Assembly: GCA_963758915.1 (NCBI GenBank)
Contig: CAVWXH010000015.1
Coordinates: forward strand, 1 to 64,000
Direction: 5' to 3'
From: an uncultured Methanomicrobiales archaeon
Lineage (GTDB): Archaea; Halobacteriota; Methanomicrobia; Methanomicrobiales; Methanospirillaceae
DNA length: 64,000 nucleotides
The translations under genes were made by a program, and so were the position numbers. Positions 10,111 through 63,629 of the stretch are shown here, in pieces; positions within the stretch are counted from its first letter, which is position 1; each line of letters opens with the position of its first letter. The notes under the pieces are model-generated. The model saw nothing but the letters and a program-made list of their open reading frames with translations. It searched no databases and had not been told where the DNA came from.

Positions 10111-10118
10111 TATAAATA
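10111..10118 (+). promoter_or_regulatory. TATA box of the Phe-leader/symporter transcript
   Basis: A-rich BRE-like run then tataaata, 31 nt upstream of the conserved GGTAAACT; same spacing as copy 2. Confidence 0.7.
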
Positions 10119-10140: not shown

Positions 10141-10285
10141 AGGTAAACTCATGTCTGTAACTACGGGAATACGAAGCAGATCAATCCTGGTTGCAGACTT
10201 TTTATTCTTCTTTAGGTAGGGGACCGGGCGTTCTGCCGGATCCCCTGTAGCGTTTCTCCATAGTTTACCGTAAGGTGTTCGTATG
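10141..10285 (+). promoter_or_regulatory. Structured 5' leader with Phe-rich uORF, copy 1 (candidate attenuator)
   Basis: Conserved with 39961-40117. Stems: ggtaaact(10142-49)/agtttacc(10262-69); gtctgtaac(10153-61)/gttgcagac(10190-98); aggggaccgg/ccggatcccct (10218-10246). Followed by ggtg SD and ATG 10283. Confidence 0.8.
10151..10219 (+). CDS. Putative Phe-rich leader peptide MSVTTGIRSRSILVADFLFFFR (22 aa)
   Basis: Manual translation. Start, frame, Phe run and AGG-TAG end are conserved in the paralog at 39972-40046. Confidence 0.75.
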   Translation: MSVTTGIRSRSILVADFLFFFR

Positions 10286-10396
10286 CTTGGAATTAATGAC
10301 CCCTGGATATTGCTCGCTTATGGCCTTTCAATCGGCCTGGCGCTGGTGTGTGTAGTGTATGGCCTGCTGAACTGGAACACGGGGGGGGAGCCCTGA
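10283..10396 (+). CDS. Symporter small accessory membrane protein (37 aa)
   Basis: MLGINDPWILLAYGLSIGLALVCVVYGLLNWNTGGEP: one TM helix, aggtg SD, stop 1 nt before the symporter ATG. Matches the small proteins that precede methanogen SSS genes. Confidence 0.88.
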   Translation: MLGINDPWILLAYGLSIGLALVCVVYGLLNWNTGGEP

Positions 10397-10397
10397 A

Positions 10398-11978
10398 ATG
10401 GCGGTGAATACCCTTGTCCTCATCTCCGTAACTGCCATTTATGTTGCCCTTATGTTATACCTCGGCTGGCTCGGATATAAAAAGACAAAGACCTCCGAGG
10501 ATTACATGGTCGCCGGGAGAGAGGCCCACCCGGTAATTATCGCCCTTTCCTACGGGGCCACATTCATCAGCACATCTGCTATTGTCGGGTTCGGTGGACA
10601 GGCCGCAAATCTCGGTATGGGACTGATCTGGCTTACCGTGCTGAACATCGGCCTGGGTATCCTGCTGGCTTTCGTCGTATTCGGTAAGAAGACCAGGGAG
10701 ATCGGGCAGCGGCTGAAAGCGGTCACCTTCCCTGACCTGATGGGAAAAATTTACCAGTCACCGTTTATGCAGGTTGTTACAGGGCTGGTCATCATTGTCG
10801 GCATGCCACTGTACACCGCTGCCGTACTGATTGGCGGGGCACAGTTTATCAGGGAAACGACCTCCATCTCGTACAGCACGTCACTCATTGGATTTGCCCT
10901 GATCGTTGCTGTATACGTGATATTCGGCGGACTGATCGCCGTAATGTACACCGATGCGGTCCAGGGGGCCATTATGCTCGTCGGGATGACCATTCTCCTG
11001 GTTGCAACGTACCTCCTCCTGGGCGGCGTTAATGCCGCAAACAGCAGCCTTACCGCGATGGCGCCACTTGTTCCGGAAAACCTTGCAAAAGGTGGCATGA
11101 CCGGCTGGACAACGATGCCCGTTTTCGGGTCCTCCATATGGCTGACCGTGATCACGACCCTTGTCCTCGGGGTAGGGATCGGTGTTCTCGCCCAGCCTCA
11201 GCTGGTTGTCCGGTTTATGACGGCAAAGAACAACAAATCATTAAACAGGGCAGTCCTCATCGGGGGTCCTTTCATCCTGATGATGACCGGGGTGGCGTTC
11301 ACGGTCGGCGCCCTCACGAATGTGTATTTCTACCAGACGGTTTCAAAAATTGCAGTCCAGGTGGCGCCCGGCGGTAATGTGGACACGATCATCCCGATCT
11401 TCATCAACCAGGCAATGCCGGACTGGTTCGTGGTACTGTTCATGGTAACACTGCTTGCTGCGGCGATGTCCACGCTGAGTTCCCTCTTCCATACGATGGG
11501 GACAGCCCTGATATGCGACCTCTGGGGGAGGGGGCGCCAGTGTGCATTATCAATGAGGGCAAACCAGGTGGGTGTGCTGATCATGATTATTGCGAGTGTG
11601 ATTATTGCATTCCTGATGCCGGGCAGTATCATCGCCCTCGCAACCGCGATGTTCATGGGGTTATGTGCCTCTGCATTCCTCCCGGCCTTCGCCGTGGCGA
11701 TGTATTCCAGAAAACCGGATGTAACTGCTGCAAAGGCCAGTTTAATCACCGGTGCTGTCGTGTGGTTTATCTGGGCGCTTTTCATCAATACCCGGTATGC
11801 ATCAGTATACGGGCTCTGCAAGGCACTTACCGGCAAGACCAGCCTCGCGGGGCTTCCCTGGGCTGCTGTCGACCCGCTCGTCATCGCACTCCCGCTTTCC
11901 GCAGCGGTTATTATTATATTACAGTTCTATGCAGACCGCAGAAACGCGGAGGCAACGCCTTCCTCTCCAGCCACATAG
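10398..11978 (+). CDS. Sodium:solute symporter (SSS, PutP/PanF-like)
   Basis: EDYMVAGR, ALSYGATFISTSAIVGFGG, GGLIAVMYTDAVQG, QPQLVVRFM, AAAMSTLSS; about 13 TM helices. Confidence 0.95.
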   Translation: MAVNTLVLISVTAIYVALMLYLGWLGYKKTKTSEDYMVAGREAHPVIIALSYGATFISTSAIVGFGGQAANLGMGLIWLTVLNIGLGILLAFVVFGKKTREIGQRLKAVTFPDLMGKIYQSPFMQVVTGLVIIVGMPLYTAAVLIGGAQFIRETTSISYSTSLIGFALIVAVYVIFGGLIAVMYTDAVQGAIMLVGMTILLVATYLLLGGVNAANSSLTAMAPLVPENLAKGGMTGWTTMPVFGSSIWLTVITTLVLGVGIGVLAQPQLVVRFMTAKNNKSLNRAVLIGGPFILMMTGVAFTVGALTNVYFYQTVSKIAVQVAPGGNVDTIIPIFINQAMPDWFVVLFMVTLLAAAMSTLSSLFHTMGTALICDLWGRGRQCALSMRANQVGVLIMIIASVIIAFLMPGSIIALATAMFMGLCASAFLPAFAVAMYSRKPDVTAAKASLITGAVVWFIWALFINTRYASVYGLCKALTGKTSLAGLPWAAVDPLVIALPLSAAVIIILQFYADRRNAEATPSSPAT

Positions 11979-18451: not shown

Positions 18452-20904
18452 TCCACCGTTCCTTTCCCCTCGTACCAGGAGTCATTATCCAGGGTATCAT
18501 GCTGCGATTCAAGGAACAGTTTCAGGTCCCCAAGCAGGGTGCGGACCGACTGGTACCGGTCTGATGGGTCCTTTTGCAGGCATTTCAGGATGATCGGATC
18601 CAGCGGGCCCGCAAGGGGGTTCACTTCAGAGGGCGGAACCGGCATCCGCGAGATAATGGCGTTACTGACCTCAGCAAGGTCATCGCCCGGGAACAGGAGT
18701 TTACCGGTAACGAGTTCGTAGAACACTACCCCGAGCTGGTAGATGTCAGTCCGTGCATCCGTCTCACCAAATCTCCCGGGGGAGATCTGTTCTGGTGCTG
18801 CATACGCAAGCGAGAAGCCTGCAACGGTCGGTATGGCAGAAGAACCGATAAGGCGGCTCATCCCCCAGTCGCTGATCTTGGGGACACCGTGGCTGTCAAT
18901 CAGGATGTTCTGGGGTTTGATATCCCGGTGTATGATCCCCTGTCCGTGCGCATAAGAAAGGCCCTCAGCGACCCCGGTAACAATTTCCGCTGCATCTTTC
19001 ACGGGTAGCGGTGTCTTTAAGTCCGCGAGCCCGGACTTCACAAACTCCATCTCAACGTATGGTATGGGGAGGATGTTCACCTCGGTAATCTCGACGATAT
19101 TCGGGTGGCGGAGCCCCTCCCAGGCGAGGATCTCCTTCATGAAGCATTTCCCGGTGGTTTCATCGAACCGAATCGGTATTTTGACCGCAACCGTCATCCC
19201 GTCCTTAAGTCGCATCGCCCGGAACACGTGGGAGATACCCCCCATCCCGAGGAAGTCTATACTTGTATAACGATCTGCAAGTTCCGGCGGGAAAATATCA
19301 GGTCTTGTGGCTGTTGAACGCCGGTAGGGGTCAGACCCCGAAGGTACCCTTGTTTCGTCACCGTTAAAAAGACCAAACGGGTAACTTCGTTTCTGTACCT
19401 GCAACGCGAGCGAGTGGTCCTGCCAGAGTGCCAGCAGTGCGGATACCGGGGCCGCAACAATAGTTACGAGGATCGCCATCGTTTCTCCCTGTCCGAGCGA
19501 GAAAAGAAGGATCGGGGTAACGATGAGCACAATCACACCGATAACGACATGTACCTTCAGGGTCCAGCGGAGGGGGCGGGACAACAGGGATCCAACAGCA
19601 AGTGCCAGGGCCGAAAATATCAGGTATGCCCCGAGCAGTAACACGATCAGCAGGAGCGGGAGGGTGAGCGTATTGGTAAGTGCAGGGAGCAGGGCAATCA
19701 TCCTTGAGAGGACGAATAACAGGCCGAACCCGCATGCAACCTGCCCGAAGGCAACACCAGCCCTCACCACGAGTGGCTGGGGGAATGATAGGTGGCCAAG
19801 CCCGAGATAATCGTGGGCAAGGAGGAGGACAAGGGGTATTACCGCAATAAACAGGAAAATTATCACATTCCATGACGCCAGGCCTGCGGGAGGTTTGATA
19901 CCTGGCATGGTCATGTTTGCGGACCCGTTCGCCTGGGTATCCTGCGGGGAGGTCCCAGCCGGCGCAATGGCAGTGGAGTTATTTATTCCCGTGCCCGGGG
20001 TCCCATTAACCCCAGGTGTTACTACGAGTAGTGTACCATTCGTTACCTGGGTCTGAGTCGCATTCGGCTGTGGTGTAAGGCTGCTGGTGGGGACCGTGGT
20101 AGGTAAGGAGGTACGCTCGGAGGGGGTTGGAAAAATGTACGGTAACGTTGAGATAGTTTCCGGAACACTGGTGGGGAGGGGCGTAGGTACCGTGGTCGTC
20201 TGATTTGTTCCGCCCGTCACCGGCACGGTCGTCCTGATTGTCGTGGGTACTGCTGTTGTTACGGTTGTCCTGACTGTCGTCAGCACTGTTGTAGGTACTG
20301 TTGTAAGTATTGTTGTTGTCGGTACCGTTGTAGGTACTGTTGTAGGTACTATTGTCGTGATTGGGGGGAGGAGAACGAGGTTAATTTTAGGGATGTTGGT
20401 CGTCTGGTCTCTCTCCACGATCACAGAACGGGTATAATCATTGTACCCCGCAAGGGCGAGCCTTAATTCATGAGTTCCGGCAGGAATATCATTTAGCGTT
20501 CTTGGTGTTGTCCCGACTCCTGTTCCATCAATAAAAATTGTAGCGCCGTTCGGGTCTGAACTGACCTTAATGGATCCCTGGTCAGGAGCAAACGTAACAG
20601 AGATGGAATGGTCGGCATTGACGTTCGAGAACTTGTATACAGGAGATGCCGGGGTCACTTTTCCATCAACGGTCATGAGATCAAAGTGGTACCCGGTATC
20701 AGGGTCAATGAAAAACAGGATATCCCCACCTGTTTCAACAGGTACCGCTCCTGACGGGGAAATTTTTCCATGACTCCCTGCCGACGCGGTAATTGTGTAT
20801 GCGGATGCAGCGGTTGTCACTGATACCGCAAGCATCACCCCGATTACCAGGATATACAGGAGTACCAGGCTGGGATCGGACCGTTTTCGAAACTGATGAT
20901 TCAT
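18448..20904 (-). CDS. Membrane Hanks-type Ser/Thr kinase with extracellular beta-sandwich and PEGA domains, Thr-rich linker and multi-TM segment
   Basis: Signal peptide; PEGA (VSSDPNGATIFIDG..GTTP); about 5 TM helices; GMGGISHV, VAVK, HRDIKPQN, DWG, YAAPEQ, DIYQLG. Confidence 0.93.
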   Translation of the reverse strand: MNHQFRKRSDPSLVLLYILVIGVMLAVSVTTAASAYTITASAGSHGKISPSGAVPVETGGDILFFIDPDTGYHFDLMTVDGKVTPASPVYKFSNVNADHSISVTFAPDQGSIKVSSDPNGATIFIDGTGVGTTPRTLNDIPAGTHELRLALAGYNDYTRSVIVERDQTTNIPKINLVLLPPITTIVPTTVPTTVPTTTILTTVPTTVLTTVRTTVTTAVPTTIRTTVPVTGGTNQTTTVPTPLPTSVPETISTLPYIFPTPSERTSLPTTVPTSSLTPQPNATQTQVTNGTLLVVTPGVNGTPGTGINNSTAIAPAGTSPQDTQANGSANMTMPGIKPPAGLASWNVIIFLFIAVIPLVLLLAHDYLGLGHLSFPQPLVVRAGVAFGQVACGFGLLFVLSRMIALLPALTNTLTLPLLLIVLLLGAYLIFSALALAVGSLLSRPLRWTLKVHVVIGVIVLIVTPILLFSLGQGETMAILVTIVAAPVSALLALWQDHSLALQVQKRSYPFGLFNGDETRVPSGSDPYRRSTATRPDIFPPELADRYTSIDFLGMGGISHVFRAMRLKDGMTVAVKIPIRFDETTGKCFMKEILAWEGLRHPNIVEITEVNILPIPYVEMEFVKSGLADLKTPLPVKDAAEIVTGVAEGLSYAHGQGIIHRDIKPQNILIDSHGVPKISDWGMSRLIGSSAIPTVAGFSLAYAAPEQISPGRFGETDARTDIYQLGVVFYELVTGKLLFPGDDLAEVSNAIISRMPVPPSEVNPLAGPLDPIILKCLQKDPSDRYQSVRTLLGDLKLFLESQHDTLDNDSWYEGKGTVE

Positions 20905-22493: not shown

Positions 22494-22568
22494 AGCGAGG
22501 TAGGGTAGTCAGGATATCCCGACGGGCTCATAACCCGTAGACCGATGGTTCAAATCCATCCCTCGCTA
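22494..22568 (+). tRNA. tRNA-Met(CAT), initiator
   Basis: Acceptor stem AGCGAGG/CCTCGCT (A1-U72), anticodon arm ACGGG-CTCATAA-CCCGT with three consecutive G-C pairs, T arm GATGG-TTCAAAT-CCATC; upstream tatataa and downstream T tract. Confidence 0.97.
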
Positions 22569-27498: not shown

Positions 27499-27554
27499 GG
27501 GCATTTTCATGGTTCGGGTGTGAACTCCCCGTTCATGTGTGTTTCTACAGAGCC
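27499..27554 (+). repeat. Dispersed intergenic repeat, short copy D
   Basis: gggcattttc..ggtgtgaactccccgttcatgtgtgtttctacagagcc is nearly identical to 38549-38602. Confidence 0.8.
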
Positions 27555-38104: not shown

Positions 38105-38602
38105 GCTGGTATGAAAAACTCCGGCAAAACAATCTGAAATGCCACCTTTTTCATGCTCCTCTTTTAGCTAAAAGGCTCATAGCACGCTCTGTTGACATTC
38201 ACTCAAATCTATCTTTGGGATTAGGGTGTTCCCATATTTACCTTCGCTCCCAGGGCTCCGCCCCACCGCTGTGGCGATCCCTGTTTGGATAGAGACTGCA
38301 CCCCGTACCCGGAAATTTATGAGAGTCTGGAAACGCTGCCCAACGGATATCTTATTGGGGGTGGGGCAGAGAGGGGGGTGAGACCCCCTTGGATGTTTAC
38401 GTATATCCTCTTTTTTTAACTGTGCGGGGTTTCCCATGAAAACAGGCATGATGCCAAAAGGCCACAAGCATACAACATGAAATTGCCAGTGGGAATTCTC
38501 ATATTAAATGCCTGAACGGCCAGCGATATGGAGAGATTTTGGACGTCGCATTTTCAATCGTTCTGGTGTGAACTTCCCGTTCATGTGTGTTTCCACAGAG
38601 CC
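38105..38602 (+). repeat. Dispersed intergenic repeat, longest copy B
   Basis: Shares colinear blocks with 1561-1902 (minus strand), 27499-27554 and 63281-63629. Confidence 0.8.
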
Positions 38603-38666: not shown

Positions 38667-39818
38667 TCACAACTGGACAAGGTATTCATAGGCTTCCAGC
38701 GCTGCCTTGGCCCCTTCTCCTGCTGCGATGATGATCTGTTTGCCCTTGATATTCGTTACATCTCCTGCAGCAAAAATTCCAGGGACACTGGTGTGACAGT
38801 TAATATCGATAATGATCTCTTTCTGGTCATTGAGCTTCACCAGGTCTGATACAAAATCCGTGTTAGGTGACCAGCCGATCTCAGCAAATACTCCATCGAG
38901 GGTAATTTTTGATTCTTCACTGGTGAGCCGGTCTTTGATAGTGATTGCGTTAAGGAGGTTATCCCCGTGAAGCATGGTCACGACCGAATTGGAATGGAGA
39001 ATAATATTTTTTTGTGCCTCGAAGAGCTTGACATACACTTCGTCAGCCCGGATAGTACTTCTTACAATCAGGTGAACTTCCCTGGCAATTCTGCTCATTT
39101 CGACCGCAGTCTGAAGGGCTGAATTCCCCCCTCCTACAATGGCAACGACCTTGTTTTTGAATAACGGGCCATCACAGGTTGAACAGATTGAAAGGCCCCT
39201 GCCGAGAAAACGTTCCTCCCCATCGACACCGAGTTTTTTCGGTTGTTTCCCTGGTGCAAGGATAACAGCTCGCGCAAGGTAGGTAGTATCCGTGGCAGTA
39301 TGGATTGTAAATATTCCATCAGACGGGATAATTTCCCGGACCCCGTCCAGTTCCAGGCTGATCTTCTGCTCCTTGACCTGGTCCTCAAATTTCTTCATCA
39401 GCTCATCGCCGGTGATCATCCGGTACCCCATGTAGTTCTCGATGGTCCAGCTTTCAAGGGCCTGGCCCCCGATATTTTCAGTGATGACCACGGCGGTGAG
39501 GAGCTTCCTCGCACAGTATACGGCAGCGGTCAGTCCGGCCGGCCCTGCACCGATTATAACAACATCAAGAATATCCCCTTCGGTCCCGGTACCAAAAATT
39601 TCATTGAGTCGCTGGGCATCAAACCCGACAATTATCTCGTCGTCGATCGTGATGACCGGGACACCACGCTGACCGGAGATCCCGATCATGTGCTTTGCTG
39701 CTCCCTCGTCCTCCCCGACATCGATTGATGTAAAAGGGATGTTGTGTTTCTCGAGAAACGCCTTTGCCATCCTGCAGTAGGGGCAGTTTTTTGTTGAATA
39801 TACGGTTACCTGCGGCAT
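38667..39818 (-). CDS. Glutaredoxin-thioredoxin reductase fusion
   Basis: N-terminal CPYC..GQRGVPV Grx domain; GAGPAG, CSTC redox motif, GGGNSA, GIFAAGD. Start ATG 39818. Confidence 0.93.
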   Translation of the reverse strand: MPQVTVYSTKNCPYCRMAKAFLEKHNIPFTSIDVGEDEGAAKHMIGISGQRGVPVITIDDEIIVGFDAQRLNEIFGTGTEGDILDVVIIGAGPAGLTAAVYCARKLLTAVVITENIGGQALESWTIENYMGYRMITGDELMKKFEDQVKEQKISLELDGVREIIPSDGIFTIHTATDTTYLARAVILAPGKQPKKLGVDGEERFLGRGLSICSTCDGPLFKNKVVAIVGGGNSALQTAVEMSRIAREVHLIVRSTIRADEVYVKLFEAQKNIILHSNSVVTMLHGDNLLNAITIKDRLTSEESKITLDGVFAEIGWSPNTDFVSDLVKLNDQKEIIIDINCHTSVPGIFAAGDVTNIKGKQIIIAAGEGAKAALEAYEYLVQL

Positions 39819-39931
39819 TGATACCCTGCATTTCAGATGTATCCGGATATAAAGATGCTGGAACACCCGGGATTAATCTAACAGAATAGTTCAATCCAAC
39901 CCCGCACTGCCATGTCATAGCATAGCAAGGA

Positions 39932-39939
39932 TTAAGTAT
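39932..39939 (+). promoter_or_regulatory. TATA box of the Phe-leader/binding-protein transcript
   Basis: ttaagtat, 31 nt upstream of GGTAAACT, the same offset as copy 1. Confidence 0.6.
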
Positions 39940-39960
39940 TCCGGAATCAAAAACCTTACT

Positions 39961-40117
39961 AAGGTAAACTTATGTCTGTTACTATATGCAGGAGAGGCAC
40001 GGATATTGTGCAGGTAACAGGCGCCTCCTTTTTCTTCTTTAGGTAGGGGACCGGTGCTATAGCCGGATCCCCTGTATAGGCATTATAGAGAGTTTACCGG
40101 ATGGTGTTTTTATCATG
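39961..40117 (+). promoter_or_regulatory. Structured 5' leader with Phe-rich uORF, copy 2 (candidate attenuator)
   Basis: Stems: ggtaaact(39963-70)/agtttacc(40091-98); gtctgttac(39974-82)/gtaacaggc(40014-22); aggggaccgg/ccggatcccct (40045-40073). Then ggtg SD and ATG 40115. Confidence 0.8.
39972..40046 (+). CDS. Putative Phe-rich leader peptide MSVTICRRGTDIVQVTGASFFFFR (24 aa)
   Basis: Manual translation. Differs in length from copy 1 by exactly 2 codons, so the frame is preserved; ends ttt ttc ttc ttt agg tag. Confidence 0.75.
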   Translation: MSVTICRRGTDIVQVTGASFFFFR

Positions 40118-40246
40118 TGTAAAATTTTTCTAATCCCACATAATGAGGCAAAAAGGCGGAATGACAGCATTACTATCGAGGACACATGCCCCTGTCTCGC
40201 CGATGGTATGGCCTGCAGGAATCTTTCAGCCCGGAGGACATTCTGA
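40115..40246 (+). CDS. Putative 43-aa Cys-containing small ORF coupled to the binding-protein gene
   Basis: MCKIFLIPHNEAKRRNDSITIEDTCPCLADGMACRNLSARRTF; ggtg SD at the conserved leader position; TGATG overlap with the next start. Confidence 0.45.
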   Translation: MCKIFLIPHNEAKRRNDSITIEDTCPCLADGMACRNLSARRTF

Positions 40247-41571
40247 TGAGAACCAGCACGATTATTCTGGTATTAATGGCGGTGGGGCTTATCCTCGGAG
40301 GTGTTGCCATTTCAGGATGCACCCAGCAAGCCTCTGCATCGCCAAATGAGGTTAAGATCGGGGTTGTCGCGTCATTAACCGGCCCCGCGAGTGCGACAGG
40401 GAAAGACATGTGGCAATCGGCACAAATTGCCGCTGATGAAATAAATGCCAATGGAGGGGTTTATGTACAGGAGTTCGGGAAGAAAATCCCGGTAAAAGTA
40501 ATTGTCGGTGATGATGAATCAACCCGTGAAGGCGGCCAGAAAGCCGTTACAAAACTTATTTCCTCTGATAAGGTCGATGCCCTTGTCGGTGGTTTTTCGA
40601 GCGCCGTGACGACGGCACACCAGTCTGTTGTTGCAGAATACAAGGTGCCTTACGTCATAACCGGGGCATCAAGCCCGACCATCACGAGGAGGACGGATAT
40701 TGATACATCCTACATGTATCACTTCTGCCCGACTACCGATGATTACGGGGGCCAGACGACCAGGTTTATCAGCAACTTCCTCAGGCCGGCCATTTACAGA
40801 AAATTTAATTTCAGTGAAGACAGGCCCCTGAGGCTCGCAATTATTTACCAGGACAGTCCCTATGGGAAAGGAGTCCTCACGGCGGTTGAAAACACGATAA
40901 AGAAGGAGAATTTACCTGTCAGGATTGTGAGCAACGAATCGTTTAAAATGGGGGAAACCGACTTCAGGACATTGCTCACCAATGTCAAGGCTTCCCAACC
41001 CGACGTGATTTATTCAGCAGCCTTCCTGAATGAACAGGCGCCCATGATCACTCAGGGCCGGAGGGATGTCGGGATGAACACCATATTCGTGGTGGTCGAG
41101 TGCAACGACGATCCGGATTATTACAAGGGTCTCAGCAGGTATGGCGAAGGATCAATCATTGAAAGCCATTTCAGCCCATATACTGTGCCCAATGGGACTA
41201 CGTCCAACGCTGCAATTGCATTCAAGAGTGACTACCAGAAAAAGTGGGGCGGACTCCCCGGCATGATGGGTGCTACAACCTATGAGGGGGTAAAAATTGT
41301 TGCAAATGCAGTAGGGCAGGCGGGTTCACTCGATAAAACAAAGATCAAGGATGCCCTTGGGGCAACAAACATGCCTGAAACAATAGAGGCGATGAAGGAT
41401 GGGAAAATCTCTTTCTCAAAGGACGCCCGTGAGGCTGCCTTCAACCTCTACATGGAACAGCTTGTCTGGAACGAGACTGTCCAGGAACTACGGCCGAATA
41501 TTATTTATCCTGCTGAACTGAGCCAGGGCAGTTTTGTACTCCCTGACTGGTACCAGCCGGGAACAACCTGA
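40246..41571 (+). CDS. LivJ/LivK-like ABC substrate-binding lipoprotein
   Basis: Signal peptide with ISGC lipobox, KIGVVASLTGP, EINANGG, GGFSS, GETDFRTLL; ggagga SD. No permease or ATPase adjacent. Confidence 0.92.
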   Translation: MRTSTIILVLMAVGLILGGVAISGCTQQASASPNEVKIGVVASLTGPASATGKDMWQSAQIAADEINANGGVYVQEFGKKIPVKVIVGDDESTREGGQKAVTKLISSDKVDALVGGFSSAVTTAHQSVVAEYKVPYVITGASSPTITRRTDIDTSYMYHFCPTTDDYGGQTTRFISNFLRPAIYRKFNFSEDRPLRLAIIYQDSPYGKGVLTAVENTIKKENLPVRIVSNESFKMGETDFRTLLTNVKASQPDVIYSAAFLNEQAPMITQGRRDVGMNTIFVVVECNDDPDYYKGLSRYGEGSIIESHFSPYTVPNGTTSNAAIAFKSDYQKKWGGLPGMMGATTYEGVKIVANAVGQAGSLDKTKIKDALGATNMPETIEAMKDGKISFSKDAREAAFNLYMEQLVWNETVQELRPNIIYPAELSQGSFVLPDWYQPGTT

Positions 41572-41678: not shown

Positions 41679-42179
41679 CTATACGATTTCTTTGAATACT
41701 TTTTTAAATGCACTGCAGATCGGGCACCTTTCCGGGGGTTCACCACGGAAGATGTTCCCGCAGATCGGACAAAGGATGACTTTCTGCGCGGAAAGGTCGT
41801 GCCCTGCACTGATCGCCTTCAATGCCTCCTTGTAAAGATTGGCGTGGACTTCTTCTGCTTTCATTGCATATGTGAAGGCGATGACTGCATCGCTCTGTTT
41901 CTCTGCTTCCCCTTCCTTAACGAAACCCGGGTACATCTCGGTATATTCGTGAGTCTCTCCGGTAACGGAAGCTTTTAAGTTGTCTTCAGTTTTACCGATT
42001 GACCCAAGCACTTTCAGGAGTCGCTTTGCATGAATCGCTTCCGCTTCTGATGCAGCGGTGAAGAGCTTTGCAACATTGGTAAACCCTTCATCCTTTGCCT
42101 TGTCAGCGAATGCCGAATATTTTCGGTTTGCCTGCGATTCCCCGGCAAACGCATCCATTGCGTTTTCTTTTGTTGCCAT
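41679..42179 (-). CDS. rbr: Rubrerythrin
   Basis: AFAGESQANRKY, EAIHA, GETHEYTEMYP, EEVHA, CPICG..CPIC. Confidence 0.95.
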   Translation of the reverse strand: MATKENAMDAFAGESQANRKYSAFADKAKDEGFTNVAKLFTAASEAEAIHAKRLLKVLGSIGKTEDNLKASVTGETHEYTEMYPGFVKEGEAEKQSDAVIAFTYAMKAEEVHANLYKEALKAISAGHDLSAQKVILCPICGNIFRGEPPERCPICSAFKKVFKEIV

Positions 42180-42427
42180 GATCATCTAGTGGGGCAAAAT
42201 AAGTAATAACTGTATTCATCGTTCTGGTACCGGAGTGACAATACTGTTGTGTACCATTTTTAGAGAATTGTGATCCTGTGTAGGGATAATCAAAAAAACA
42301 GATAGTATTCCGGAACCCTTTTACACCATCACCACACCACGCTGATATCTGAAATACTTCCGGCAGAGCCCATGGTTAGAACCGGCCGGTTGAAGATATT
42401 TCCGGGTGACAGGACACGGAGGTCGGT

Positions 42428-45045: not shown

Positions 45046-45669
45046 ATGCCCATAAAGGTCCTTGCATTCGCGTCGAGCCCGCGGAGGGGCGGGAATTCCG
45101 AGACGCTCCTTGACTGGATGCTTGCATCAATGAGTCTTGAGAGCGATGTGGCCGTTGAGAAGATTGTACTGATTGATGCGGATGTTAATCCCTGCCGGGG
45201 ATGCAATGCCTGCGAAAAGCTCAACCATTGTGTCCAGAGAGACGGGATGGACAGTGTTCATGATAAAATAATCGAGGCGGATATCATCGTGTTCGCATCT
45301 CCTATCTTCTGCATGGGTATCCCGGCACAGGGGAAATCCTTAATCGACCGTGCACAGGTGTTCAGGTCAAGAAAATACGTCCTGAAACTCCCGGTCGTCC
45401 CGCCTGAGCGCAAAGGTAAACGGATGGGCATTTACCTGGGGACCGCAGGGCAAACGTGGGAAAATGTTTTTGACGGGGCGATCATGTCGGTCAAATGCCT
45501 TTTCCATGTGATTGAGGTACGGGACCGCGATATCCGGTACCTGTTCATCAGGGGAGTTGATGAAAAAGGTGCAGTCCTTTCACACCCAACGGCAAAAACT
45601 GATGCGGAACAGCTCGGTCATTCGGTAATCGCCGAACTGAGGGGCAGGCTCCAGAGTGAGAGTGCATGA
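45046..45669 (+). CDS. Iron-sulfur flavoprotein (Isf family)
   Basis: SSPRRGGNS, PCRGCNACEKLNHC, ASPIF, KSLIDR. Confidence 0.9.
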   Translation: MPIKVLAFASSPRRGGNSETLLDWMLASMSLESDVAVEKIVLIDADVNPCRGCNACEKLNHCVQRDGMDSVHDKIIEADIIVFASPIFCMGIPAQGKSLIDRAQVFRSRKYVLKLPVVPPERKGKRMGIYLGTAGQTWENVFDGAIMSVKCLFHVIEVRDRDIRYLFIRGVDEKGAVLSHPTAKTDAEQLGHSVIAELRGRLQSESA

Positions 45670-46271
45670 CGGTAACGGTCATCGGGATCTCGGGCAGCCC
45701 GCACCGGCACGGAAATACCGAGACACTGCTGGATAGTTTTCTCGACGGTGCTGCACACGCCGGTGCAGACACTGACAAGATTATTTTAAGATCTATGAAT
45801 TACACGCCGTGCCGGGGATGCAACGCCTGCCATAAGACAGGGGAATGCATCGTCCAGGACGACGCCGAGATAATCATTGAACGGGTCATGTCCTGTGACG
45901 GCCTTGCTGTTGCCTCGCCAATCTACAGCATGGGGATTACAGCAGAACTGAAGGGGCTGATCGACCGGGCCCAGTACATCTGGGCACAAAAGTTCATACT
46001 GAAGACCCGTTTTTACCAGGACGAGGTAATCCGGCACCATAAAGGGATATTCATTTCAACCGCCGGTCTCCCGTGGGAAAATGTTTTTGATGCGGCATTT
46101 CCTGCGATCACGGCATTTTTCAACACGCTTGGCATCGAATATTATGACAATATCATTGCCAATGATATGGACACCTATAAGGGGATCCAGGGGCATCCGA
46201 CTGCACTGACTGAGGCATTCACAAAAGGGGAAAAAGTTGTCAGGGTTATCGAATCGCTCAAAACGAAATAA
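45666..46271 (+). CDS. Iron-sulfur flavoprotein (Isf family)
   Basis: GSPHRHGNT, PCRGCNACHKTGEC, ASPIY, KGLIDR; ATGA overlap. Confidence 0.9.
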   Translation: MTVTVIGISGSPHRHGNTETLLDSFLDGAAHAGADTDKIILRSMNYTPCRGCNACHKTGECIVQDDAEIIIERVMSCDGLAVASPIYSMGITAELKGLIDRAQYIWAQKFILKTRFYQDEVIRHHKGIFISTAGLPWENVFDAAFPAITAFFNTLGIEYYDNIIANDMDTYKGIQGHPTALTEAFTKGEKVVRVIESLKTK

Positions 46272-63280: not shown

Positions 63281-63629
63281 CTTTGTTGAAACCCTCTCAT
63301 CTGTCTTGCTGGTTTGGTTATTCCCAAGTATACCCGCGCTCCAGGGGCTTCGCCCCGCCACTGTGGCGGCCCCGGTTGGGATAGGTAATGACCTTTAAAT
63401 CTCTAGAAATTTTCAGCAATACGGCAGTTGAACCTTGCTCATAGGATATCGTGTTGGGTTGTGGCAGGGAGGGGGTGAAACCTCCTCCTGTCTACCTATT
63501 TTCTTTTTTTTAAAATATGCAGGTTTTCCCATTAAATACCTGAAAAGACCCCAATATATGGGTAATTTGAGCGAGAAGTGTTCATGGTCCGGGTGTGAAC
63601 GTCCCGTTCATAGATGTTTAACGAAACCC
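63281..63629 (+). repeat. Dispersed intergenic repeat, diverged copy C
   Basis: ccaggggcttcgccccgccactgtggcg, ggcagggagggggtgaaacc and gggtgtgaacgtcccgttcat occur in the same order as in 38240-38602. Confidence 0.72.

Follow-up and report, generated by a model that had tools for sequence, protein, structure and literature searches.

Two genes of different transporter families in the genome of an uncultured archaeon of the order Methanomicrobiales are each preceded by a short upstream open reading frame (uORF) that ends in a run of phenylalanine (Phe) codons, which raises the question of what such a shared leader does and which other genes carry it. Both genes lie in the window analysed here, a stretch of 64,000 nucleotides (nt) of contig CAVWXH010000015.1 (positions 1 to 64,000; contig 15 of the 18 that make up the 2.38 Mb assembly GCA_963758915.1). 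One leader copy (copy 1, 10151-10219) precedes the small accessory gene of a sodium:solute symporter and the other (copy 2, 39972-40046) precedes a gene for a LivJ-like solute-binding lipoprotein; the genome contains exactly these two. We consider, with a probability of roughly 0.6, that the element is a cis-acting translated leader that serves as a ribosome-mediated sensor of Phe-tRNA in Methanomicrobiales. An earlier sequence-only reading had described the uORF at 39972-40046 and its twin copy, and had suggested that selection acts on uORF translation, that recent duplication or a mobile repeat would not explain the pair and that the shared leader defines a regulon. Both open reading frames (ORFs) were recovered, each ended by TAG. 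The parts of the two leaders are as follows, with P1, P2 and P3 denoting the three helices described below.

39931-39939, plus strand: TATA-like promoter box of copy 2, ATTAAGTAT, read from the sequence
39963-39971, plus strand: 5' arm of P1 in copy 2, GGUAAACUU, at the presumed transcript 5' end; pairs with 40090-40098 in the minimum free energy (MFE) fold
39972-40046, plus strand: leader ORF of copy 2 (L002), ATG, 24 codons and TAG, encoding MSVTICRRGTDIVQVTGASFFFFR
39974-40022, plus strand: P2 hairpin of copy 2 (GUCUGUUACU ... GGUAACAGGC), within the uORF, from the fold and the arm test
40029-40046, plus strand: putative regulatory codons of copy 2, TTT TTC TTC TTT, followed by AGG and TAG, from the sequence and the codon table
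40043-40075, plus strand: P3 hairpin of copy 2 (G-UAGGGGACCGG ... CCGGAUCCCCUG-U), which takes in the stop codon and begins one base ahead of it, at the third position of the Arg codon, from the fold and RNAalifold
40090-40098, plus strand: 3' arm of P1 in copy 2, GAGUUUACC, from the MFE fold
10111-10118, plus strand: TATA box of copy 1, TATAAATA, from an octamer scan
10142-10149, plus strand: 5' arm of P1 in copy 1, GGUAAACU, from the fold
10151-10219, plus strand: leader ORF of copy 1 (L001), 22 amino acids, encoding MSVTTGIRSRSILVADFLFFFR
10217-10247, plus strand: P3 hairpin of copy 1, from the fold
10262-10269, plus strand: 3' arm of P1 in copy 1, AGUUUACC, from the fold, with a Shine-Dalgarno (SD) sequence AAGGUG then at 10272-10277

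The copies, which make up repeat family D4 (85% over 48 nt), have three blocks in common: one around the start codon, TAGGTAAACT(C/T)ATGTCTGT (TAGGTAAACTyATGTCTGT), one that covers the end of the ORF and the sequence 3' of it, TTCTTCTTTAGGTAGGGGACCGG...CCGGATCCCCTG, and one shortly 5' of the next SD, AGTTTACCG. Their lengths differ by 6 nt, as had been noted (22 and 24 amino acids), and the middle of the uORF has indeed diverged between them; this diverged middle is the hairpin P2, in which pairing is kept. The promoter spacing had been described as the same in both copies at 31 nt. The spacing is similar in the two, and on recounting the TATA-like octamer ends 32 nt (33 nt in the octamer scan) ahead of the uORF ATG in copy 2 and 32-33 nt ahead of it in copy 1; among leaders of relatives an octamer of this kind stands 30-35 nt 5' of the ATG in 60 out of 75. 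From the position of the TATA box and the usual archaeal spacing between TATA box and transcription start, the 5' untranslated region of the uORF would be roughly 6-12 nt.

To establish how far the leader extends beyond this genome, we searched 151 genomes of the family with a sequence pattern of P3, using the reversed pattern as a control, which gave 70 listed matches against nine for the control; among 30 of these loci that were fetched, six were false and one was a duplicate of copy 1. A covariance model (R1; 149 positions, 29 pairs) recovers both window copies with E of about 1e-24 and has matches in 57 of 151 genomes of the order Methanomicrobiales, in all six families (19/29, 3/20, 1/12, 10/30, 15/30 and 8/29 genomes in families f1 to f6, respectively). 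A second sample, labelled as class and composed of the same six families, gave matches in 79 of 151 genomes. When the phylum was sampled, all eight matching genomes, including that of the window, belonged to the order, and 132 genomes from twenty other families of the phylum gave no match (E up to 0.01, with stricter filters). These genomes are relatives and not independent samples, and absence from an incomplete genome proves nothing. Pooling the model-aligned matches (A5, A6 and A7) gave 121 leaders, 106 of them distinct, and three further pheS-linked leaders bring the distinct set to 109.

An ORF running from ATG to TAG is present in 104 of the 106 distinct leaders, the exceptions being a 46-nt partial match (L074) and a decayed copy that has lost its stop (L079). 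We avoided bias in the frame test by taking the first ATG 3' of the 5' arm of P1 in any frame; this ATG shares the frame of the TAG in 95 of 99 distinct leaders, against one third expected by chance, and the four exceptions have an earlier out-of-frame ATG. Five further leaders had no ATG in the scanned stretch, as their aligned region ended short. Distances from ATG to TAG fall into eight classes (63, 66, 69, 72, 75, 78, 93 or 96 nt), all of them multiples of 3, and the uORF accordingly comprises 20-26 codons, or about 30 in family f5. The two checks that the sequence-only reading had proposed, that insertions and deletions should come in multiples of 3 and that TTT and TTC should interchange while Phe is kept, thus gave the first outcome in the length classes and the second at codons -4, -5 and -6 counted from the stop. 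Selection on translation of the uORF is supported by the conserved frame and the 3-nt length steps among homologues, as far as sequence comparison can indicate. A mobile repeat or recent duplication can be rejected, as the earlier reading had argued: there are only two copies in the genome, 107 of the 109 distinct leaders precede genes of three target families, and the helices covary.

Conservation of the encoded peptide is restricted to its C-terminal end, (F/A)-F-F-x-F-(R/S)-stop, while N-termini vary by family (MSVT..., MTTT..., MRS..., MIGN..., MNAR...). In the 104 leaders with the complete ORF, the stop codon is always TAG and codon -2 always TTT. Codon -1 encodes Arg in 99 (AGA 51, AGG 39, CGG 4, CGA 4 and CGT 1, that is, five of the six Arg codons) and is AGT in the other five. 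Codon -3 is TTC in 67 and TTT in one; the other 36 encode Leu, Val, Ile, Ser, Thr or Gly, and all four bases occur at its first position. Phe is encoded by codon -4 in 96 (TTC 78, TTT 18), by codon -5 in 74 (TTC 52, TTT 22; Ala in 25) and by codon -6 in 78 (TTC 35, TTT 43), and 102 of the 104 have three to six Phe among the last seven residues. A programmed frameshift or readthrough was also considered. In 95 of the 104, AGN at codon -1 places another UAG in the -1 frame, and inspection by eye found neither a canonical slippery heptamer suitably spaced from P3 nor a conserved extension in another frame, so that this candidate was rejected.

The leader is also conserved as an RNA structure. Both window copies fold independently to the same three-way junction (z of -2.1 and -3.2), and most of 24 relatives give the same junction on folding. 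P1 pairs the 5' end of the leader, which in copy 1 is GGUAAACU ahead of the AUG, with a segment ahead of the next SD (AGUUUACC). P2 lies inside the uORF, from the G of the AUG to just 5' of the Phe codons, with arms GUCUGUAAC/GUUGCAGAC in copy 1 and GUCUGUUAC/GUAACAGGC in copy 2; both sides have changed between the copies, so that pairing is preserved. P3 is a GC-rich hairpin that starts at the stop codon, and RNAalifold recovers it from the 24 relatives, including the pairing of UAG with CUG and of the third base of the Arg codon with U. The Phe codons occupy the single-stranded joint between P2 and P3, and since the AUG lies between P1 and P2, the folded RNA would hide it. In alignment A5 (49 distinct rows), 84% of the cells assigned to pairs are paired against 76% in shuffles, and the covariation score is 0.237 against 0.120 for shuffled alignments (0 of 500 reach 0.237) and 0.05-0.10 when partners are slid by 1-3 columns. 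Changes on both sides occur in 19 of the 29 pairs, among them 8 of 9 in P2 and 7 of 12 in P3.

Since A5 had been fitted to the model, we added an alignment-free test, in which the 5' arm of each helix was duplexed with its own 3' arm or with 3' arms from leaders differing by at least 4 bases in the 5' arm. Own arms paired better in all three helices: -10.4 against -8.0 kcal/mol for P1, -10.6 against -7.8 kcal/mol for P2 and -19.0 against -16.1 kcal/mol for P3, with the own partner better by more than 1 kcal/mol in 62, 66 and 74 of 95 leaders, respectively. P1 in particular is spelled differently by lineage, as GGUAAAC/GUUUACC, GGUAUUCAG/CUGAAUACC, GG(A)UACCUC/GAGGUACC, AGGGAUGA/UCAUCCCU and GGUAACAGUA/UACUGUUACC, and bases that never vary are concentrated at the junction (UUU, G, UAGGG, ACC and CC). 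The blocks that the two window copies have in common are also arms of a covarying three-way junction, which the sequence-only reading had not noticed, and reading frame and fold are both conserved.

A structured RNA of this kind could itself be the sensor, either as a riboswitch or by binding a protein or tRNA through the conserved UUCUUUAGRUAG / CCCCUGUA, with the ORF secondary or incidental. Covariation in all three helices, the gathering of invariant bases at the junction and constraints on nucleotides beyond those of coding would all be expected from such an element. An incidental ORF would not be expected to be in frame in 95 of 99 leaders with every length class a multiple of 3, to keep an invariant ATG between P1 and P2, to be free of in-frame stops in 104 of 106 leaders or to vary in a coding-like manner at codons -3 and -1. 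Moreover, no Rfam family matches anywhere in the window at the gathering score except a tRNA, and the region 39850-40300 gave only four chance-level matches (11-16 bits) when E was allowed up to 10. We therefore regard direct sensing by the RNA as improbable.

The genes behind the leaders point to the amino acid that is involved. The downstream genes of the window copies are:

10283-10396, plus strand: symporter small accessory protein, 37 amino acids (NCBIfam NF045580, E 8.5e-18, 64 bits against a cut-off of 35)
10398-11978, plus strand: sodium:solute symporter (SSF, nearest PutP and PanF; Pfam PF00474, E 1.2e-50; TIGR00813, 185 bits against a cut-off of 184)
40246-41571, plus strand: LivJ-like solute-binding lipoprotein (Peripla_BP_6; Pfam PF13458, E 1e-52)

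The start of the LivJ-like gene is most likely ATG 40246 and not 40186, judging from the SD GGAGGA at 40233-40238 and a signal sequence with lipobox, MRTSTIILVLMAVGLILGGVAISGC. The closest solved relatives of its product are Leu/Ile/Val-binding proteins; solved structures of relatives of the symporter gave no hint of its substrate. No gene for an ABC permease or ATPase adjoins the LivJ-like gene, whose neighbours are on the other strand. Searching the DNA downstream of the 109 distinct leaders with tblastn assigned 86 to an orthologue of the symporter, 16 to a LivJ-like gene, five to pheS and two to nothing recognisable. The small accessory gene precedes the symporter wherever inspected. Among LivJ orthologues, the leader is present at 10 of 42 loci (44 were found, and L163 and L164, with no upstream sequence, were excluded), so that only a part of the family has a LivJ-linked leader. 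pheS encodes the alpha subunit of phenylalanine-tRNA ligase (PheRS alpha; NF003210, E 1.8e-177, 591 bits against a cut-off of 350), and each of the five genomes with a leader-linked pheS has one match to this profile. The pheS leaders encode MSASPSLCYGDFMIVDFFCFFR in genus g13 (G012, G045 and G037), and MSSMGSFPLFFFGSFFSFR (G132) and MSNTGSFFPFFSCSFFSFR (G054) in genus g15, each followed by the stop. The pheS gene of the window's own genome stands directly behind another gene, without a leader.

Since symporter, LivJ-like gene and pheS account for 86, 16 and 5 of the 109 leaders, the leaders form a Phe-specific regulon. The earlier proposal of a regulon is hence borne out and also sharpened, with pheS added as a third target. 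The simplest history is that an old symporter leader was copied several times onto other genes. The uORF product is very improbably a functional micropeptide acting in trans, for example in the membrane together with the transporter, and it is equally improbable that the uORF merely fixes a constitutive level of expression by reinitiation, with no sensing. Such roles would be in keeping with the conservation of the ORF, with its constant place at the head of a gene row that continues with a small membrane protein and a transporter, and with the translational coupling of the ORFs behind it; the same leader, however, stands ahead of a cytoplasmic tRNA ligase, the N-terminal two thirds of the peptide are unconserved between families beyond what P2 pairing needs, and the conserved RNA junction would be left unexplained.

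Two leaders stand apart from the three target families. L079 (G085:C1:2409235-2411226) is a second leader in one genome, in which the stop of the uORF has been lost (TTC AGG AAG GGG); it is followed not by the symporter but by an accessory-like ORF of 58 amino acids and a protein resembling CPA2-type antiporters (TIGR00932, 142 bits, below the cut-off), and is probably a decaying copy. L063 (G048:C20:11212-13202) has an intact uORF, MSRSMDSVRTTLWHSFEFFFR and stop; its P1 is not followed by an SD, none of the three target genes lies downstream, and the ORF that comes next (108 amino acids) matches no NCBIfam family. Leaders with runs of other amino acids were also sought in the same genome, giving 260 raw candidates, of which the four inspected precede unrelated ORFs and none is convincing. 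On contig C9 of G000, on the minus strand (153174-153209 in reverse-complement coordinates), an ORF of 11 codons, MMTAEFFFGIF, is closed by TAG, with a TATA-like box 5' and a hairpin after the stop; it is unrecognised by the covariance model and may be a chance occurrence or a terminator region.

The position of P1 relative to the next gene suggests where the output may lie. P1 ends 10-17 nt (mode 13) 5' of the next start codon, and is followed by an SD, in 49 of the 49 leaders listed. Downstream of copy 2 this start codon belongs to an ORF that the sequence-only reading had not mentioned, here designated ORF2, which lies between the leader and the LivJ-like gene:

40103-40106, plus strand: Shine-Dalgarno-like GGUG of ORF2, read from the sequence
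40115-40246, plus strand: ORF2, 43 codons, a putative coupling ORF whose TGA overlaps the ATG of the LivJ-like gene (ATGA)

An ORF of 40-46 codons that starts from the SD after P1, and whose stop overlaps or abuts the start of the LivJ-like gene (as ATGA, TGATG or TAATG), is found in 15 of the 16 distinct leaders of the LivJ class; in the sixteenth (L015) the script chose an earlier ATG. The sequence of ORF2 is poorly conserved, and some of its N-termini (MFGIS...) recall that of the accessory protein (MFGIPDPQIW...). The pheS leaders of genus g15 have ORFs of 25 and 27 codons that overlap the start of pheS, and those of genus g13 have an ORF2 of 56-63 amino acids. The copied unit therefore consists of promoter, leader and first small ORF, and this ORF has been kept open and, where checked, coupled, which is expected if the regulated step is initiation beside P1.

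Metatranscriptomes provided some RNA evidence for the copy 2 locus. Two runs contained 0.18 and 0.05 of the sampled words of the stretch, and a 230-nt contig from a close relative spans 40019-40251, which takes in the Phe codons, P3, P1, ORF2 and the start of the LivJ-like gene, with six substitutions and a net 3-nt deletion within ORF2. Two further contigs cover 40882-41250. The 230-nt contig is of low depth and does not show that the stretch is one transcript; contigs of this kind reveal neither transcript ends nor expression levels, with DNA carry-over possible and gaps uninformative. The 230-nt contig lacks 1 + 2 bases at 40186 and 40193, and the frame of ORF2 is kept downstream.

With the ORF, its conserved frame, the three helices, their covariation, the output geometry and the three target families established, we infer that the signal is the supply of charged Phe-tRNA, that expression rises when this is scarce and that the output lies at translation initiation rather than at transcription or RNA decay. 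Sensing of Phe supply through the ribosome is suggested by the Phe run together with the link to pheS and to uptake genes, as in the bacterial pheM-pheST and pheL-pheA systems. In the mechanism that we propose, the mRNA would begin a few bases 5' of the uORF and the first ribosome would load on the 5'-proximal AUG during transcription. When charged tRNA-Phe is plentiful, this ribosome would pass the Phe codons, terminate at UAG and depart, upon which P2, P3 and P1 would fold into a compact junction that buries the start of the uORF. The closed junction would set a helix 10-17 nt ahead of the next start codon, within the stretch that an initiating small subunit needs, and downstream expression would be low. 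When charged tRNA-Phe is scarce, the ribosome would wait on the Phe codons, of which the final one is invariably UUU. With the usual footprint of about 15 nt downstream of the P site, it would reach the base of P3 once that final codon is in its A site, and it would also cover P2 along its 3' arm. The junction would then be blocked, P1 would not be held shut and the next ORF, which is the accessory gene or ORF2 in its place, would be translated. Across overlapping stop and start codons, or a gap of 1 nt, its ribosomes would pass on to the gene for the symporter, the LivJ-like protein or PheRS alpha.

Several observations weigh against this proposal. The leader is absent from 26 of the 30 pheS loci examined in the family and present at four, and evidence from RNA is limited to the one 230-nt metatranscriptome contig, from a close relative. 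No alternative pairing was found that would link a stalled ribosome to the downstream ribosome-binding site (RBS). Computed accessibility of the SD was 0.34, 0.34 and 0.35, unchanged when the ribosome footprint was masked at the Phe codons or at the stop. Complementarity between footprint and RBS did not exceed that of shuffles (mean z of -0.01 over 49 leaders), with only L002, that is copy 2, and L003 at about -2.4. Nor did the folds of both copies and the 24 relatives contain a hairpin with a U-run between the uORF and the next ORF. Constraints at the level of bases belong to the same list. UUU at -2 is invariant and TTC outnumbers TTT by 67 to 1 at -3; AGA and AGG make up 90 of the 104 last codons, where CGN accounts for 377 of 562 Arg codons (67%) in the long ORFs of the window; the only non-Arg last codon is AGT; and TAG is invariant yet is the rarest of the three stops in those long ORFs.

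The accessibility and complementarity results bear on a variant that we tried and do not find supported, in which the next RBS would be paired, as by an anti-SD, with the Phe tract or with the footprint of the stalled ribosome: the masked folds and the z of -0.01 argue against it, and the best duplex partners of the RBS are spread along the whole leader, although pseudoknots (for example across P1) are invisible to the programs used. The lack of a hairpin with a U-run also means that a terminator and antiterminator of the classical kind cannot be invoked. P2 with a U-run behind it was likewise considered as an intrinsic terminator and rejected; by eye, five or more U follow P2 in genus g1, and such a run is lacking in g11 and family f5, so that a terminator of this type is not general. 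The output may instead lie in transcription or RNA decay. In a bolder variant, the U-rich Phe tract may double as a signal for aCPSF1/FttA, the archaeal termination factor, that is masked by the waiting ribosome.

UUU at -2, AGR at -1 and UAG are more constrained than a purely peptide-level reading predicts. The pairing in P3 of UAG with CUG, and of the third base of codon -1 with U, accounts for part of this, and the remainder suggests that the bases as such, or particular tRNAs during termination, play a part. This unexplained part keeps alive both direct sensing by the RNA, considered above, and arrest by the nascent peptide, in which the C-terminal FFxF(R/S) in the exit tunnel would stall the ribosome at UAG, constitutively or with Phe or another ligand, much as in bacterial TnaC, SpeFL or PepNL, and the arrested ribosome would keep P3 open. 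Arrest would explain why conservation is limited to the six C-terminal residues, each at a set distance from the stop, while N-termini vary by family, and why Phe at -2 and UAG never change and Arg at -1 is kept in 99 of 104 leaders through five codons; the pairing of the stop codon inside P3, with a GC-rich stem directly 3', would fit as well. It sits less easily with other features of the same codons. Ser occurs at -1 only as AGT and AGR is preferred far above the Arg usage of the genome, which points to the bases and not the residue, and position -3 is free. Furthermore, sensing of free Phe needs no Phe codons, and pheS with uptake genes is the classic set for a response to low charged tRNA, as in pheM-pheST and the T-box systems. 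On balance we consider nascent-peptide arrest unlikely, and the waiting of a ribosome on Phe codons remains the reading that we prefer.

Sensing of amino-acid supply by a leader peptide is a textbook mechanism in bacteria, and to our knowledge no archaeal leader-peptide amino-acid sensor has been described; a full-text literature search, with most subscription journals outside its range, found neither this element nor archaeal sensors of that kind. The pheM-pheST and pheL-pheA systems of E. coli are leader-peptide attenuators with which the element shares a short Phe-rich leader ORF ahead of Phe genes including that for Phe-tRNA ligase, RNA structure around the ORF that carries the signal and, as proposed here, a ribosome that reads the supply of tRNA-Phe. 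Compared with the classical attenuator, the leader has an ORF with codons for one amino acid and lies ahead of genes for that same amino acid (pheS, and a LivJ-like protein nearest to Leu/Ile/Val binders), whereas mutually exclusive antiterminator and terminator hairpins with a U-run were not found, a feature that is bacterial, archaeal termination signals being different. Unlike pheM and pheL, the element is archaeal and forms one junction closed by the long-range P1, with no competing 1:2, 2:3 and 3:4 hairpins and no terminator; its Phe codons stand at fixed positions at the very end of the ORF, the stop codon lies within a stem, and the output is probably at the adjacent RBS, through a coupled small ORF.

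T-box RNAs of Gram-positive bacteria bind uncharged tRNA directly and are untranslated. They resemble the leader in that a gene for an aminoacyl-tRNA ligase and transporters for the same amino acid come under one leader, and differ in that the reading frame is conserved here and no T-box or other Rfam model matches. TnaC, SpeFL and PepNL (for the last, PMC11890864) sense free ligand in the exit tunnel and act via Rho or by exposing an RBS in bacteria. These peptides also have a conserved C-terminal motif directly at the stop, ahead of transport or metabolic genes; in the present leader the conservation near the stop has a strong bias in the bases, the motif is a run of codons for one amino acid and the targets include its tRNA ligase. 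The leaderless polycysteine short ORFs (sORFs) of mycobacteria, the 'Cys ribulon', in which the codon tract pairs with the SD of the next gene, are the closest published analogue (bioRxiv 10.1101/834739). They resemble the present leader in that codons for one amino acid are gathered at the 3' end of the sORF and that several loci of the metabolism of that amino acid have the same design; a 5' leader that is very short or lacking, and control of translation without a terminator, would be further points in common if the start site and output proposed here are right. The element described here differs in that pairing between tract and SD is unsupported and in its covarying junction, its occurrence in Archaea and its use of Phe.

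As an amino-acid sensor the candidate is order-wide and defined by sequence, with a clear amino-acid identity and three target families. It allows a direct test of whether RNA switches coupled to translation operate in Archaea and of what their output is, in an architecture unlike the relay of hairpins in bacteria. Equally testable is the function in methanogens of the conserved symporter, together with its accessory protein, and of the orphan LivJ-like protein, both of which would be predicted to take up phenylalanine or a precursor, and the leader might serve as a Phe-responsive expression part for methanogen genetics. In its fullest form, to which we would give about even odds, the proposal is that no ribosome-mediated sensor of an amino acid has been described in Archaea before this one: a near-leaderless ORF of Phe codons set in a three-way junction, which would read the charging of tRNA-Phe co-transcriptionally and gate the abutting RBS via a coupled mini-ORF, and which would be ancient in Methanomicrobiales and repeatedly copied onto Phe-related genes (symporter, orphan binding protein and PheRS alpha).

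The locus of copy 2 and the LivJ-like gene is flanked by redox genes on the minus strand, namely a divergently transcribed gene for a fusion of glutaredoxin and thioredoxin reductase (38670-39866) and a rubrerythrin (41682-42185). The tRNA gene that provided the sole Rfam match in the window lies at 22494-22568 (66 bits). The window also contains other repeats. Arrays with a period of 12 nt (D1 and D2; units such as TGTTGTCGGTAC, 19-21 copies) lie about 20 kb apart at 1-330 and 20164-20352 and probably encode repetitive protein segments. A 51-nt sequence, TTTTCATGGTTCGGGTGTGAACTCCCCGTTCATGTGTGTTTCTACAGAGCC, occurs in three copies (D3) at 27504-27554, 38552-38602 and 63579-63629, the latter two being 88% and 75% identical to the first. 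Finally, two adjacent ORFs of about 200 amino acids, at 45046-45669 and 45666-46271, share repeats at a spacing of 617 nt (D8 and D11), and the pair looks like a tandem gene duplication.

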